DNA of 64,000 nucleotides from an uncultured Gammaproteobacteria bacterium (GTDB taxonomy: Bacteria > Patescibacteriota > Microgenomatia > UBA8517): positions 7,255 to 71,254 of the forward strand of contig CAZAXL010000005.1 in assembly GCA_964489145.1 (NCBI GenBank), in the 5' to 3' direction. The notes below the pieces were generated by a model, which worked only from the letters and a program-made list of their open reading frames with translations, made no database searches and was not told the DNA's origin. Within the stretch, counting starts at the first letter, position 1; each line of letters opens with the position of its first letter. The translations under genes were made by a program, and so were the position numbers. This document shows positions 5,478 through 28,895 of the stretch, piece by piece.

Positions 5478-6428
5478 ATGAAACAAATTAAAATCGGGAT
5501 AATGTTTTCCAAAGATTTTACAGGGAATGAACCACTTAGCCATATTGTGGTTAAGCTTCCTGTTTATAAGAGGTTTCTTGAACTTTGCCAGGCGGAAGGT
5601 TGGAAAGTATATGTCTTAACCCGCAAAACTTATGTTGGCAACGGAACTTTTAAAGGCGCTTGGCATTTTGATAATGGAAAATTCTTTAAAGTTTTAGATC
5701 CAGTCAAAATCGATTTAGTATATGACAGGTCGGGTGGGGTAATGTTACCGCCGTCTGGGGATGAAAGTTTGATTTGGGTTAACAGGAGAGACTTTAAGCT
5801 TTTAGCATGGGACAAATGGGCAGCCTTCAATATCATTGGTGAATACATGCCACAAACTTTTATTATTGAGGACAGAAAGAAGCTGTCAAAAATTCTCACT
5901 CAAATTAAAAGCGATTGTGTAGTTCTTAAGCCACTTAACGGACTCAAAGGAATCGGAATTTTTATCGGACCAAAAAAAGAAGCACTGAATTTTAAATTTA
6001 ACGAAAGGTACAACCGTTATATTGCTCAGGGGTTTGTAGACACGGGAAGTGGAATCCCCGGCATTACTTTGGGGCTACATGACCTCCGAATTGTGATAGT
6101 AAATGGCAAACCGGTATGGTGTCATGTTAGAGTTCCGGCTGATGGAAGTCTTTTGGCAAACGCTGCACAGGGGGGAAATATTACAGAAATAGATTACGAT
6201 AAAATTCCGGAATCTATCAAAAAAATTGTTGGTAATATTACAACATTTTTTTCATGGAAATATGATAACCCAATTTATAGTTTGGATTTTGGGGTTGGAA
6301 AAAACGGCAAACCCTACATTTTTGAAATAAATGACCAAATGGGTTTTCCAAAATGGGAGATGGATAAAAAAGATATGTTTTTACAGGAACTTGTAGAGAA
6401 TTTTAAGACAAAGCTTCAAAGGAGCTAA
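5478..6428 (+). CDS. ATP-grasp family ligase (RimK/YheC-D-like)
   Basis: 316 aa. 'VVLKPLNGLKGIGIFI', 'GFVDTGSG', 'LRIVIVNGKPVWCHVR', 'YIFEINDQMGFP' match the ATP-grasp C-terminal half. Confidence 0.6.
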   Translation: MKQIKIGIMFSKDFTGNEPLSHIVVKLPVYKRFLELCQAEGWKVYVLTRKTYVGNGTFKGAWHFDNGKFFKVLDPVKIDLVYDRSGGVMLPPSGDESLIWVNRRDFKLLAWDKWAAFNIIGEYMPQTFIIEDRKKLSKILTQIKSDCVVLKPLNGLKGIGIFIGPKKEALNFKFNERYNRYIAQGFVDTGSGIPGITLGLHDLRIVIVNGKPVWCHVRVPADGSLLANAAQGGNITEIDYDKIPESIKKIVGNITTFFSWKYDNPIYSLDFGVGKNGKPYIFEINDQMGFPKWEMDKKDMFLQELVENFKTKLQRS

Positions 6429-6562
6429 AAAAACTCCATCATTTAAATTCCGTACAATTGGTTTTAGTTGTATATATCGAGATAATTTTTTATTCTAAAG
6501 ACAACGACAATCTTTAAGTTTTTATACTCCTAATAAAATACGAAGATACATTTCTTACTCAA

Positions 6563-6597
6563 CAAAAAATCCCGCCTTTTTGGCGGGACCTTTTGTT
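6563..6597. terminator. Bidirectional Rho-independent terminator between the ATP-grasp cluster (+) and rplL (-)
   Basis: Hairpin 'CCCGCC-TTTTT-GGCGGG' flanked by an A-run on one side and a T-run on the other. Confidence 0.6.
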
Positions 6598-6660
6598 GTA
6601 GGAACTTATAGTTCCTCAGCTTTCACTGTAGAACTATCAATAACCTCAAATTAATTAAAG

Positions 6661-7065
6661 TTATTTAAGTTCCACTTTTGCTCCTGCTGCTGTAAGTTTG
6701 TCGGAAGCTGCTTTAGCGTCTTCTGCTTTAGCGTCTTTCAAAACTTCGGCCGGAACAGTGTCAGTCATTCCTTTGGCGTCCATTAAGGTTAGGTTGGGAT
6801 TGATTTCCCTTAAAGCCTTAATAACTGCAATTTTATTTGCACCGGAGTCGGTCATGACGACTGTTTTATTAGCACTTCCGGTATCTTCTGCTGGAGCTTC
6901 TCCTGCGGCTGCTGGGGCTGCTGCTGCAACCGGAAGCGCTGCGGAAACACCAAGCTTGTCTTGCAAAGCTGTGACTAATTCGGAAAGTTCCAAAACAGAA
7001 AGTTTAGAAACTTCCTCCACAATCTTTTCAACTTTTTCTGATACTTTTTTAGATTCTTCTGCCAT
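6661..7065 (-). CDS. rplL: 50S ribosomal protein L7/L12
   Basis: 134 aa. Ala-rich hinge and a conserved C-terminal domain 'KIAVIKALREI...AEVLKDAKAEDAKAASDKL..AGAKVELK'. Confidence 0.95.
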   Translation of the reverse strand: MAEESKKVSEKVEKIVEEVSKLSVLELSELVTALQDKLGVSAALPVAAAAPAAAGEAPAEDTGSANKTVVMTDSGANKIAVIKALREINPNLTLMDAKGMTDTVPAEVLKDAKAEDAKAASDKLTAAGAKVELK

Positions 7066-18570: not shown

Positions 18571-18621
18571 AAGGAAAAATAAAGGGCGTTTCTACACAAA
18601 AATTTCTTGTATAAAAACGCC
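18571..18621 (-). terminator. Possible stem-loop terminator after the 114-aa ORF
   Basis: 'GGGCGTTT...AAACGCCC' 8-bp stem with a long loop, followed on the minus strand by a T-rich tract. Weak. Confidence 0.3.
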
Positions 18622-18642
18622 CAAATAAATGGTGCCTAGAAT

Positions 18643-19799: not shown

Positions 19800-19851
19800 G
19801 GGGATATTCTAGCAAATTATATGTGAATAGTGAATAGTGAATAGTAATTTG
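19800..19851 (-). promoter_or_regulatory. Putative rpmG promoter: three tandem 'TATTCAC' heptamers + TATAAT
   Basis: Minus sense 'TATTCACTATTCACTATTCACATATAATTTGCTAGAATATCCCCATG'. Confidence 0.4.
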
Positions 19852-19923
19852 AGCCTGAGGTGAGGATTGAACTCACGACCCCGTACTTACCAAGTACGTG
19901 CTCTACCACTGAGCTACCCAGGC
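19852..19923 (-). tRNA. tRNA-Thr (anticodon GGT)
   Basis: GCCTGGG/CTCAGGC acceptor, D-arm GCTCAGTGGTAGAGC, anticodon loop TTGGTAA, T-arm GTGAGTTCAATCCTCAC. Confidence 0.85.
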
Positions 19924-19983
19924 GAGTCACCGAACCTGGGTAGAGAAAGTGGCAAGATTTTCTTACCACTGAGCTACCCAGGC
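19924..19983 (-). repeat. Self-complementary partial copy of the tRNA-Thr(GGT) 5' half directly upstream of the tRNA
   Basis: A 22-nt copy 'GCCTGGGTAGCTCAGTGGTAAG' plus its complement 'CTACCCAGG' form a long hairpin abutting the mature 5' end. Confidence 0.6.
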
Positions 19984-19995
19984 AAATAAAACAAG

Positions 19996-20080
19996 TGCTG
20001 AGGTCAGGATTCGAACCTGAGTAGCCCTTTCGGACGCGAGATTTACAGTCTCGTGCGTTTGACCGCTCCGCCACCTCAGC
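19996..20080 (-). tRNA. tRNA-Tyr (anticodon GTA), long variable arm
   Basis: Anticodon stem-loop CGAGA-CTGTAAA-TCTCG, T-arm TCAGGTTCGAATCCTGA, 85 nt. Confidence 0.85.
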
Positions 20081-20084
20081 GCTG

Positions 20085-20156
20085 AGCCGACGAGAGGATT
20101 CGAACCTCTGACTTGCTGTTTACAAAACAGCTACTCTACCACTGAGTTACGCCGGC
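20085..20156 (-). tRNA. tRNA-Thr (anticodon TGT)
   Basis: GCCGGCG acceptor, D-arm ACTCAGTGGTAGAGT, anticodon loop TTTGTAA, T-arm AGAGGTTCGAATCCTCT. Only 4 nt from tRNA-Tyr. Confidence 0.8.
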
Positions 20157-20226
20157 AAGCGTATATCCGGCGTAACATTGTTTTTCTCAGTGGCCAAGCT
20201 ATTGCTTACCACTGAGTTACGCCGGC
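20157..20226 (-). repeat. Self-complementary partial copy of the tRNA-Thr(TGT) 5' half directly upstream of the tRNA
   Basis: 'GCCGGCGTAACTCAGTGG...CCACTGAG...TTACGCCGG' is a nested inverted repeat of 9 + 8 bp built from this tRNA's own 5' sequence. Confidence 0.6.
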
Positions 20227-20264: not shown

Positions 20265-20420
20265 GAAAAAAGACCCTGCCTCAAAAAGTCCGGCTGCATT
20301 CCTGGATAAACCAGGTGGGTAAGCTGCCTTCCTCAGCATGAAAGCTTTGGTTGGACTCCGCTTTCCCAAAGCACTTTTATTTGATCAGGAAATTTAAACC
20401 GAACACTTTTCGACAGGGTC
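20265..20420 (-). ncRNA. Candidate about 155-nt structured RNA / structured 3' UTR downstream of the M50 gene
   Basis: Long-range 7-bp closing helix GACCCUG...CAGGGUC followed by U6. Internal hairpins GCUUUGG/CCAAAGC, CCUGG/CCAGG, GCUG-AGGAAGG-CAGC. Confidence 0.2.
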
Positions 20421-20448
20421 CACATTAATTATATCAGAGGTGCACAAG

Positions 20449-21414: not shown

Positions 21415-21431
21415 GCAAAGCTTGGCCCTGC

Positions 21432-22304
21432 TCAGCAGAATCGCATCGCATTGTAACCTTCTTTAAATTGTTTCCAGGTTACAGGCTCTTTGCCTTCCAG
21501 TTGAACTTCGTCCAGAACCAGTTTTTCGTCTTCAAGATGTACTTTTAATATTTTTAATCTCTTATTCTTTTCATCCGTGGTTGATAAACGGATAAATGTC
21601 CAAGCTCCCGGCCAGGGGTACATGGCTCTTACTAACTTTTCAATCTCAGCCGGAGTTTTTTTATCTATGTTGAAAAAGCCATCCTCCTTTTTCATAATTT
21701 TTGTGAATGTCGCCTCTTTGTCGTTCTGTGCCTTTAAATTAATTTTACCCCGGATGTAAGGTTCCAGTAGCTCAACTAAAACGTCAGCCGATTTTTCAAA
21801 TAGGCGATTTCTTAAAGTTTCCGCGGTATCGTCTGTAAGTATTTCTTCTTTTGATTGAGAGATAATTGGTCCATGATCCATTTTTTCATCCATTTTAATA
21901 ATTGAAACACCTGTAATTTCATCCCCATTGGCAATGGCAGCGGGAACCGGAGAGGCACCTCTGTATTTTGGCAAAAGAGAGGGGTGAATTACTAAAATTC
22001 CTTGGGAAAAAAGATCGATGACATCTTTTTTGATAATTTCCCCATATGATGCCAGTATTCCCAGGTTAGCGTCAGGGGGACTATCAATCAGATCATTCGC
22101 AGAATAATAAATTGGAATTTTATGCTCATGCGCCCATTTATCGATGGGAGAATATGCAAGAATTTGCTTTCTGCCGATGGGCTTTGGTGGCTGAGTTACA
22201 ACGGCAGTTATGGGAGATTTTCCCGGCCCGGTCACAAATTTTTTGTGAATCGCAGTCAAAATCGGCAGAACGTAAACTGGTGTACCAAAGAAAACTATTT
22301 TCAT
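21432..22304 (-). CDS. fmt: Methionyl-tRNA formyltransferase
   Basis: 'MKIVFFGTP', 'SLLPKYRGASPV'. def lies immediately upstream. Confidence 0.9.
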   Translation of the reverse strand: MKIVFFGTPVYVLPILTAIHKKFVTGPGKSPITAVVTQPPKPIGRKQILAYSPIDKWAHEHKIPIYYSANDLIDSPPDANLGILASYGEIIKKDVIDLFSQGILVIHPSLLPKYRGASPVPAAIANGDEITGVSIIKMDEKMDHGPIISQSKEEILTDDTAETLRNRLFEKSADVLVELLEPYIRGKINLKAQNDKEATFTKIMKKEDGFFNIDKKTPAEIEKLVRAMYPWPGAWTFIRLSTTDEKNKRLKILKVHLEDEKLVLDEVQLEGKEPVTWKQFKEGYNAMRFC

Positions 22305-27809: not shown

Positions 27810-28895
27810 GTGACAGAAAGTGAATATCTAACCGCAATTTGTGCATTTACTTATTTTGGACCTGCCAGGGTGAGACTTTTGACGTCATATTTTAAGAGCC
27901 CCAAAAAAGTATGGGAAAGCACTTTGGGAGAGCTTACCGAAGTCGGTTTGCCTGAAAAGAAAATAATAGAGTTTTTAAGTTTTCGGAAAGATTTTAATAT
28001 TAAATCTTATTTTCAAAGGCTAACAAAGTTAAATATAAAAGTTACGACATTTTTAGATAATAAATTTCCCGAAGTTTTTAAAGCCTTGGATGGGGCGCCC
28101 GTTGTCTTGTATTACCGCGGATCACTCAACGGTTTGAGAACAAATTCAGTTGCAATTGTAGGGACACGGAGAATGACTTCTTATGGAAGGGAAGTTACCG
28201 AGAAGTTTTCTTCAGAGCTCTCCTCATTTGGTGTAACAATAATTTCCGGTCTTGCCAGAGGAGTGGATACGACGGCGCATAAAGCCTCTCTTTTGGCGGG
28301 TGGTATCACAATTGCCGTATTGGGAAATGGTTTAGACAGTGTCTATCCTCCTGAAAATAAAACCCTGGCAGAGGAGATTATCCAAAAAGGCGGAGCAGTT
28401 ATCAGCGAGTACCCGCTTGACTATCCCGCACTTCCTGTTAATTTTGCCGTCAGAAATAGAATTGTTTCCGGACTTGCAACATGTGTCCTGGTAATTGAAG
28501 GGGCGGAAAAAAGCGGAACGCTTTTAACAGCATCTCACGCAGCCGAACAAGGCAAAACTGTATTTGCGATTCCGGGACAGATTACATCACCTCTTTCAAA
28601 AGCCCCGTTTTATCTTCTGAAAAACGGAGCAAAAATGGCGACTGAAACTCGGGATATTTTAGACGAGCTTGATATGGAGGTAAAAGTTGATAAGGAAAAA
28701 ATGAAAAAAGTTGTACCGGATACACCCGAGGAGGCTAAACTTATAGAACTTTTGGAAAACGAAACCCTACACCTTGACGAGCTTGTTAGAATAACAGGTA
28801 TCCAAACCTCCGAGATTTCTGCTAGACTGACTATCATGGAAATGAAAGGGTTAGTCAAGAGTTTAGGAGGCGGAAAATACAAGCGAAGCTTGTAA
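27810..28895 (+). CDS. dprA: DNA-processing protein DprA (Smf)
   Basis: 'VAIVGTRRMTSYGREV', 'IISGLARGVDTTAHKASL', C-terminal wHTH. Confidence 0.85.
   Translation: MTESEYLTAICAFTYFGPARVRLLTSYFKSPKKVWESTLGELTEVGLPEKKIIEFLSFRKDFNIKSYFQRLTKLNIKVTTFLDNKFPEVFKALDGAPVVLYYRGSLNGLRTNSVAIVGTRRMTSYGREVTEKFSSELSSFGVTIISGLARGVDTTAHKASLLAGGITIAVLGNGLDSVYPPENKTLAEEIIQKGGAVISEYPLDYPALPVNFAVRNRIVSGLATCVLVIEGAEKSGTLLTASHAAEQGKTVFAIPGQITSPLSKAPFYLLKNGAKMATETRDILDELDMEVKVDKEKMKKVVPDTPEEAKLIELLENETLHLDELVRITGIQTSEISARLTIMEMKGLVKSLGGGKYKRSL

Follow-up and report, generated by a model that had tools for sequence, protein, structure and literature searches.

The small dispersed repeats (SDR) of heterocystous cyanobacteria, attributed to Elhai et al. 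in 2008 (Genome Research), are reportedly dispersed elements of some tens of nucleotides that form a hairpin with paired changes, lie nested or in tandem repeats and have no known encoded protein. The double-hairpin elements and mobile GC clusters of fungal mitochondria are 25-80 nt long, consist of two adjacent hairpins, are inserted in intergenic or structural-RNA sequences, vary between strains and have very short target duplications. Here we analyzed two hairpin elements, E1 and E2, that lie directly ahead of the genes for tRNA-Thr(GGU) and tRNA-Thr(UGU) in a 64-kb stretch of DNA from an uncultured bacterium of the Microgenomates (contig CAZAXL010000005.1; hereafter, the window). By analogy, the SDR and the mitochondrial elements appear to be the closest described systems, and REP/REPIN sequences come next. 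Our preferred reading, to which we assign a probability of roughly 0.55, is that E1 and E2 belong to a family of insertion elements, very small and palindromic ('double-hairpin'), in genomes of the Microgenomates, within the candidate phyla radiation (CPR), and that this family is tied to the TGGTA of the tRNA D-loop.

The elements described here resemble the SDR in size, in a conserved hairpin with paired changes, in dispersal, in nesting and tandem arrays and in being protein-less, whereas sequence and phylum differ and the SDR are not reported in tRNA D-loops or as duplicating the 5' part of a tRNA. They share size, adjacent hairpins and variation between close strains with the mitochondrial elements, which however are organellar, unrelated in sequence and without a tRNA-specific long form. 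Fragments of a tRNA gene repeated beside the intact gene are also known from the partial tRNA duplications at att sites of integrative elements and, in E. coli, from the tRNA-linked repeats in the tyrT operon; there the 3' end is duplicated and the copies flank kilobases of cargo or 178-bp units, whereas the repeat described here consists of the 5' 20 nt, whose two copies are 60-70 nt apart on either side of a palindrome. Template switching at quasipalindromes and deletion between palindrome-flanking direct repeats are said, from work in E. coli by Lovett and others, to be known mutational processes. They would offer DNA-level routes to complementary arms and to exact loss between 20-nt repeats, but they constitute no element family and leave a conserved core and its spread to new sites unexplained.

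REPs and REPINs (PMC3116915, PMC3733652) are short imperfect palindromes in many copies, with a conserved tetranucleotide beside the hairpin, and are mobilized by RAYT transposases. The likeness lies in the short imperfect palindromes, the many copies and the tetranucleotide; REPs differ in being extragenic, typically numbering hundreds per genome, being linked to a RAYT gene and not copying a flanking tRNA. Yeast GC clusters are the subject of PMC4478555. Our literature searches, which included the review PMC3184786, found no description of hairpin elements at tRNA 5' ends. E1 and E2 may belong to a class of mobile elements in CPR/Microgenomates that has not been described before, ultra-small (~26-70 nt), protein-less and built as double hairpins, with the universally conserved D-loop TGGTA as home site and a 5'-end-duplicating form at intact tRNA genes. 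Such elements, lying between near-invariant tRNA sequences, could move between strains and species by homologous recombination with the tRNA as homology arms and would be lost by exact deletion, in a scarless gain-loss cycle; we put this fuller proposal forward tentatively, as possible rather than probable.

Structure of E1 and E2

Both elements follow one plan, namely a perfect 20-nt copy of the tRNA 5' end, a palindromic core, a complement of the acceptor strand (anti-acceptor arm) and a linker of 10-11 nt (Table 1). A repeat finder recovered the same direct and inverted repeats, and when the tRNAs were compared with the window by BLAST, the extra 20-mers of E1 and E2 were the only further tRNA fragments. 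An exact 20-nt repeat inside 70 nt is far beyond chance. Folding gave -31.1 kcal/mol for E1 (z -5.9) and -33.5 kcal/mol for E2 (z -6.9), with 0 of 200 shuffled sequences as stable in either case; as DNA, both strands of the elements fold (z -5.2 to -6.7). The original prediction, made on this locus from the sequence, had described a 22-nt copy ahead of tRNA-Thr(GGT) at 19962-19983, the same architecture at tRNA-Thr(TGT) (copy 20205-20226, spacer 20157-20204) and long hairpins abutting both tRNAs. These claims were borne out: the first copy is exact, with 20/20 identity (22 nt with one gap), the second is a perfect 20-nt copy (20226-20207) accompanied by its complement, and both folds lie beyond all 200 shuffles. 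The further claim that the two are not copies of each other holds in that each is built on its own tRNA, but not beyond that: the core CTCAGTGGTAAG..CTTG(G)CCACT occurs in both, and E1 and E2 are therefore one family rather than independent inventions. Similarly, tRNA-Tyr lacks an element in the window, as had been stated, but has one elsewhere (L100, L107; L numbers denote comparison loci or contigs).

Several other identities were considered. In a search of Rfam 15 at gathering and permissive thresholds only the four tRNAs passed, and no match overlapped E1 or E2 even at E <= 1; a known RNA family was rejected on this basis. A signal scan found neither a promoter nor a terminator within the elements. 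E1, E2 and the insertion after rpmB described below are present and identical in the population of the window strain, that is, in five assemblies with 99.3-100% identity; because these assemblies are independent and from the same strain, E1 and E2 are not assembly artefacts.

Table 1. Features of the tRNA locus and of the third core copy, in window coordinates.
Feature	Position	Strand	Sequence or evidence
E1, 60-nt hairpin element between tRNA-Tyr and tRNA-Thr(GGU)	19983-19924	-	sequence, repeat finder, folding, BLAST
E1 copy of tRNA nt 1-20	19983-19964	-	GCCTGGGTAGCTCAGTGGTA; 20/20 identity, 22 nt with one gap
E1 core	19963-19951	-	AGAAAATCTTGCC; followed by ACT, then TTCT
E1 anti-acceptor arm	19943-19935	-	CTACCCAGG; complement of own tRNA acceptor strand
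E1 linker	19934-19924	-	TTCGGTGACTC; followed by tRNA-Thr(GGU)
E2, 70-nt hairpin element ahead of tRNA-Thr(UGU)	20226-20157	-	sequence, repeat finder, folding, BLAST
E2 copy of tRNA nt 1-20	20226-20207	-	GCCGGCGTAACTCAGTGGTA; identical to following tRNA
E2 core	20206-20192	-	AGCAATAGCTTGGCC; palindromic; ACTGAG next, 20191-20186
E2 internal loop	20185-20176	-	AAAAACAATG; between ACTGAG and anti-acceptor arm
E2 anti-acceptor arm	20175-20167	-	TTACGCCGG; complement of own tRNA acceptor strand
E2 linker	20166-20157	-	ATATACGCTT; followed by tRNA-Thr(UGU)
Predicted extended -10 box of tRNA operon	20243-20235	-	TGATATAAT; sequence; kept in L121, L122, L136
tRNA-Thr(UGU) (TGT)	20156-20084	-	complete, CCA not encoded; ARAGORN and Rfam, 71.1 bits
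tRNA-Tyr(GUA)	20080-19995	-	starts 3 nt past end of tRNA-Thr(UGU); without element; ARAGORN and Rfam
tRNA-Thr(GGU) (GGT)	19923-19851	-	complete, CCA not encoded; ARAGORN and Rfam, 66.1 bits
tRNA-Trp	18522-18449	-	fourth window tRNA; ARAGORN and Rfam
Third core copy, 42-bp insertion	21415-21456	+	directly after rpmB (L28) stop codon, not at a tRNA

Occurrence at orthologous loci and across the Microgenomates

Syntenic loci of about twelve Woesebacteria lineages were fetched through homologues of the M50 peptidase, and the tRNAs were then located in them. Every sampled locus has the Thr(TGT)-Tyr-Thr(GGT) set, and the elements are mostly absent: E1 was found in 2 of 11 lineages and an E2-like element in 2 of 12. 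Three loci that are 92-96% identical to the window (L121, L160, L216) have E1 with identical sequence and lack E2. Neither element is present in L122, where the Tyr-to-Thr spacer is just 10 nt, in L136, or in any of the more distant lineages sampled. Wherever an element is absent, the gap is exact and has the 20-nt repeat as its boundary, and E2 is an exact 70-bp indel relative to L121, L122, L136, L160 and L216. A 97-nt E2-like element is present in L125 and L127 and missing from L126, though about 350 nt of aligned flank are 100% identical. Both arms of the L125 element carry the C17 D-loop variant of that tRNA, and the E2 tail has its homologue in the tail of the L125/L127 element, non-tRNA linker GGATATGCCTT included (score 7 against -6.8 +/- 3.3 for shuffles, 0/2000). 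Homologues of E1 occur in other Microgenomates (L052, L144, L155, L162, L191, L197). E1 and E2 are therefore real elements that are stable in this strain, dispensable from one species to another and of an age greater than that of the species.

The third core copy of the window lies directly behind a ribosomal protein gene. Its layout is TTGTA|AGCAAAGCTTGGCCCTGCTCAGCAGAATCGCATCGCATTGTA|ACC, i.e., TTGTA|AGCAAAGCTTGGCC...CATTGTA|ACC, with the direct repeat TTGTA(A) on both sides and the exact 17-nt core GTAAGCAAAGCTTGGCC inside. It replaces the last codons of the convergent fmt, which encodes 290 aa here and 293 aa in relatives. E2 and this insertion are the only non-coding indels of at least 15 nt over about 12 kb aligned at about 92% identity. 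Since the close relatives L121, L122, L160 and L216 and the distant L123 and L136 are all without it, the copy at rpmB is evidently a derived gain in this lineage.

The search was extended by scanning a single genome of each species for a second copy of the D-loop located 45-73 nt ahead of a tRNA, which listed at least 120 loci, mostly from CPR, and by scanning metagenomes for the D-loop plus the core pattern; family counts from both scans are lower bounds. Family searches relied on regular expressions and BLAST, and a MAFFT alignment of the double-hairpin unit did not register the variable second hairpin. The listed loci include several classes of truncated tRNA copies, one of which has exactly the architecture seen in the window. 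Together, the scans yielded at least 34 distinct long-form elements, all with the same core, ahead of tRNA-Thr(TGT/GGT/CGT), tRNA-Ile(GAT), tRNA-Gly(GCC) and tRNA-Lys (the last from the metagenome scan) in Woesebacteria, Daviesbacteria and other Microgenomates. The family unit reads TA|AGC-NNN-GCT-TG(G)CC-X-loop-X'-GG|TA. Its middle TG(G)CC is able to pair with GGTA on either side, the X/X' stem varies in pairs, and so does the apex stem (AAGC/GCTT, AAGG/CCTT, AACC/GGTT, AAAC/GTTT, AAGA/TCTT).

The cognate relation extends through the family. Among the listed short elements, about 80% have a copy identical to the tRNA over 20/20 positions despite acceptor stems that differ between lineages, with six acceptor variants for Thr(GGT) alone. 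The duplex of the 3' arm with nt 1-10 of its own tRNA has a mean of -8.2 kcal/mol, compared with -5.1 kcal/mol for other acceptors (34 listed elements, permutation p = 2e-4), and this preference was unchanged when the set was limited to 17 distinct acceptors. Individual values range from -17.8 to -2.3 kcal/mol; E1 (-17.8) and E2 (-16.1) are the best of the family, and several members are essentially without a lower stem. Such a wide range is as expected for decay and re-templating, not for strict selection.

The core is separable from the long form. In many contigs it is a 24-30-nt insertion, flanked by GGTA/TGGTA, in the D-loop of upstream truncated tRNA copies; in one example, CAGTGGTA is followed by the inserted AGCAAAGCTTGGCCAATCAGAATTGGTA and then GAGC, and an element-free homologue of that tRNA-Ile 5' half exists in L099. 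Nested or doubled units were found in L162, L174 and L217, tandem arrays of 23-24 nt in L155 (an E1 orthologue ahead of Thr(GGT)-rpmG) and L194, and cores at non-tRNA sites after ...TA in L138, L199, L214, L217 and L248. In all, the window contains three core copies, and contigs of the Microgenomates contain dozens, both beside tRNAs and elsewhere. A further apparent match in the window, at 28880, is the end of a conserved open reading frame (ORF) and due to chance. A phage origin was rejected after a scan of viral contigs for the core gave three matches, all in coding sequence without an adjacent tRNA.

The array in L194 belongs to an unusual arrangement (6400-6900, + strand). First comes a tRNA-Ile 5' half (acceptor GGGTGCG) whose D-loop contains an array of five core units; then come a hairpin, a complete, different tRNA-Ile and one or two matching tRNA-Ile 3' halves (..GCGCACCC), and the inner gene is flanked by the short inverted repeats CAAAAATTGC / GCAATTTTTG. 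The whole resembles a tRNA gene that has been split at its anticodon loop by a second tRNA gene.

Other tRNA-linked repeats were also noted. Contigs labelled as DPANN (L007, L062, L086; Nanoarchaeota, Woesearchaeota, Pacearchaeota) have a similar 20-nt 5' copy and partial complement ahead of tRNA-Thr, and L086 has the perfect complement TACCACT in place of TGCCACT. In Bacteroidales (Maribellus, Rikenellaceae, Prolixibacteraceae), a conserved leader of another type stands ahead of tRNA-Gly(CCC): nt 1-21 of the tRNA are copied, a GC-rich hairpin with paired stem changes (TCCGCC/GGCGGA, TCCCGAG/CTCGGGA) comes next, and a second copied stretch reproduces the 3' strand of the anticodon stem and the variable loop (L015, L020, L021, L024, L029-L031, L041, L054, L063, L069, L084, L089, L091, L092, L108, L118). 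Another fragment class in CPR runs from the tRNA 5' half to the anticodon loop and continues with the conserved motif TTCACCCCGTTAGA, and a further one ends in a foreign tRNA-like 3' end, CCCCGCACCA (loci of these classes: L001, L008, L061, L087, L104, L115; L022, L037, L043, L049, L072); tandem arrays of truncated tRNA copies occur in L033, L055 and L061. It should be mentioned that many third-party metagenome-assembled genomes labelled as uncultured Gammaproteobacteria (L009, L052, L053, L068, L082, L105, L107 and others) have tRNA leaders and gene content of the Microgenomates type, and these labels look wrong.

Proposed mechanism and competing explanations

In the preferred reading, the characteristic site of the family unit would be the TGGTA of a tRNA D-loop. 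Where the tRNA gene is intact, the element takes the long form, since a complete gene comes after it: the 20 nt of the tRNA 5' end stand on both sides of the core, and the complete tRNA begins after a linker of 8-15 nt. The upstream 20-mer, the core and the acceptor/D-stem complement form the long hairpin. Recombination or slippage between the 20-nt direct repeats may remove the element exactly, and conversion between the same close repeats may keep the copy identical to the tRNA; a gene-conversion footprint, one of the options in the original prediction, comes near to this part of the explanation. The complementarity of the 3' arm could be kept by palindrome-templated correction or result from an origin as a tandem partial tRNA copy. 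Since conversion and palindrome templating at the DNA level would explain the cognate match, a function of the RNA is not needed. The data show the anatomy of the elements, the existence of the family, the exact indels, a derived gain away from tRNAs and the covariation; we infer how the units are mobilized and spread, that they are transcribed and processed, and that they are nearly neutral or lack function.

The element would be transcribed as a 60-70-nt 5'-terminal hairpin leader and cut off by RNase P. The predicted -10 box TGATATAAT lies 8 nt ahead of the first base of the E2 copy, and in the alignment with element-free alleles of relatives it likewise lies 8 nt ahead of tRNA +1. The consensus promoter scan left this box uncalled, since there is no fitting -35. 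Element-free alleles would give a near-leaderless tRNA transcript, and the window transcript would start at about G1 of the E2 copy. The E2 copy occupies the position of tRNA +1 relative to the box, and the element is therefore probably transcribed as a 5' leader.

Two features of mobile elements are seen here, namely several dispersed copies with a conserved core, and presence or absence with clean boundaries at orthologous sites, including one derived gain. Several points weigh against insertion elements. Every copy stands between direct repeats, but these differ in length (TA; TTGTA/TGGTA, 5-6 nt; or 20 nt), and an apparent target duplication of 2, 5-6 or 20 nt fits no known transposition chemistry. 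Terminal inverted repeats, the hallmark of miniature inverted-repeat transposable elements, were not found; the ends are AGC... and ...GG, and the inverted repeats are internal or formed with the flank. None of nine ORFs around the locus examined with Pfam, in a window that is not fully annotated, encodes a transposase, nuclease or other mobilizing protein. The copy at rpmB has no stable fold, and the hairpin is thus not a property of every copy. Both scan patterns demanded D-loop sequence, so that the counts give neither the non-tRNA share nor the genome-wide abundance. E1 and E2 have homologues in distant genomes and could be old and repeatedly lost, the long form being without recent mobility. 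A readily deletable element that persists across the Microgenomates needs re-insertion or some benefit. Finally, the T.G (U.G) opposition of GGTA and TGCC is invariant in bacterial members, never TACC, and sense-strand folds are 2.9 kcal/mol more stable than antisense folds (p = 8e-6), with the wobble shared by descent; with the paired apex changes, this would also fit selection on an RNA.

The boundaries of the repeat bear on where the long form came from. In 18 of the 34 listed elements it starts exactly at tRNA +1, as for a reverse-transcribed mature tRNA inserted in its own gene or for the att duplication left by a site-specific integrative element; tRNA genes are classic targets of integration, which leaves part of the gene in duplicate, and the 5' half and matching 3' halves in L194 bracket a complete tRNA-Ile. 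In the other 16, however, the repeat continues for 1-12 nt into non-transcribed or leader flank, which is impossible for a mature-tRNA copy, and such a copy is therefore not the general source. For an att site the wrong tRNA end, 5' instead of 3', is duplicated, the repeats are 40-50 nt apart, and there is neither cargo nor an integrase nearby. Both kinds of footprint are largely excluded, and we consider them very improbable. Simple fold-back synthesis on the D-stem was set aside by inspection, its predicted product, a D-arm-capped hairpin running into a complement of the upstream flank, being unlike E1 and E2. The same extensions into the flank favor decayed tandem duplicates of tRNA-Thr, in which the interior was lost and the two acceptor strands were kept; the Thr/Ile/Gly leaders would share the core by common descent, mobility would play no part, and precise deletion would have recurred. 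The 3' arm in L052 consists of the real tRNA 3' end TCAGGCTC, and its linker matches the upstream flank at 11/12 positions; several E1-like elements elsewhere also end in a real tRNA 3' end plus spacer (..CAGGCTCA..TTC; tails ..GCTCA, about 8 nt and TTC). The tails of E1 and E2 have homologues in distant genomes, and CPR genomes hold many other classes of truncated tandem tRNA copies. These data point to a long form that may have arisen by DNA-level tandem duplication of the tRNA 5' part, sometimes of the whole gene, combined with the core. As a complete account, decay of duplicates nevertheless seems unlikely to us: it leaves unexplained the identical 17-nt core after the rpmB stop codon in this lineage only, the other non-tRNA cores, the insertion in the otherwise conserved tRNA-Ile 5' half and the nested and array forms, and around E1 and E2 in the window no duplication of the flank is seen (5/12 and 3/12 matches).

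Selection at the RNA level is the remaining alternative, and the original prediction had leaned to it, arguing for a maintained structure in the pre-tRNA leader with a role in processing or regulation. The hairpin might be a processing site, as its interrupted helix of about 20 bp resembles the substrates of RNase III; it might protect the transcript as a 5'-terminal stem-loop; or it might act as a three-way switch whose 3' arm pairs either with the copy or with the true tRNA 5' end and so controls folding and access of RNase P. For the E2 precursor, the structure of lowest predicted energy is indeed an alternative fold, in which the tRNA 3' strand is bound by the copy and the true 5' end by the 3' arm (-65.0 versus about -60.7 kcal/mol). 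The strong and statistically unusual folds of E1 and E2, the paired apex changes with the invariant U.G wobble, the greater stability of the sense strand and the fixation of the elements in the population of the window strain agree with such a role. So does the match of each element to its cognate tRNA, a claim of the original prediction that held across the 34 distinct family members, where the 3' arm favors its own acceptor. On the other hand, most orthologous loci lack the elements through exact indels, including close relatives with identical tRNAs; the original prediction had suggested searching relatives for the duplication, which revealed the family across the Microgenomates, and had named its lack at homologous loci as evidence against a maintained structure, which is largely what the synteny sampling found. 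Many members have a weak lower stem or none, the core recurs in arrays, outside transcribed leaders and where no tRNA follows, and the elements contain no promoter or terminator signal. Palindrome templating of the DNA and common descent can yield the same paired changes, shared wobble and own-acceptor preference. We therefore regard a functional leader as quite unlikely and the insertion-element reading as the better description of E1 and E2.

Neighbouring sequences and significance

All four tRNA genes of the window are on the minus strand according to ARAGORN and Rfam. The tRNA cluster has rpmG downstream and the genes for the M50 peptidase, rpmB, fmt and def upstream, and the M50 protein places the organism among Candidatus Woesebacteria (Microgenomates, CPR), with GW2011_GWD2_40_19 as the best named relative. 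Compared with window 19851-20156, many relatives (L123, L125-L127, L130-L135) have the Thr(TGT)-Tyr pair in the opposite orientation with respect to the M50 gene and Thr(GGT) relocated past a queuosine-synthesis gene; the cluster is a rearrangement hotspot.

Three other features of the surrounding minus strand were noted. Between the M50 peptidase gene and the tRNA promoter lies a conserved, structured non-coding RNA of about 150 nt (20272-20421). It has a separate -10 box, is closed by the long stem GACCCUGUC...GGCAGGGUC and also contains a hairpin, ACCCACCUGG, that is invariant, as well as a U-run. The alignment fold over seven lineages has 40 pairs, with compensatory changes in 8. The match to the 6S model of Rfam is weak (19 bits, 46 needed) and was not recovered in relatives at E<0.1; the RNA is probably a divergent 6S-like RNA. 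Three tandem CTATTCA heptamers (19823-19845) between tRNA-Thr(GGU) and rpmG are kept in L121 and L122 and sit just ahead of the TATAAT/TAGAAT region preceding rpmG. A strong hairpin at 18577-18626, between an ORF of unknown function and tRNA-Trp, has a chance-level microRNA model as its sole match and is probably a terminator.

If the insertion-element reading is true, E1 and E2 represent a new kind of very small repeated element in the poorly known mobilome of CPR, tied to a specific site in tRNA genes, and they would explain the recurrent truncated tRNA 5' fragments directly ahead of CPR tRNA genes. Such fragments can mislead tRNA annotation and the discovery of intergenic RNAs. The elements would also provide a natural system for the creation, homogenization and deletion of palindromes and direct repeats in small genomes. 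If the hairpins are functional instead, they would be a new type of self-templated leader. Their insertion would turn a near-leaderless tRNA transcript into one with a structured leader of 60-70 nt, and alleles with and without the element would offer a natural comparison for the dependence on RNase P and the misfolding of pre-tRNA.

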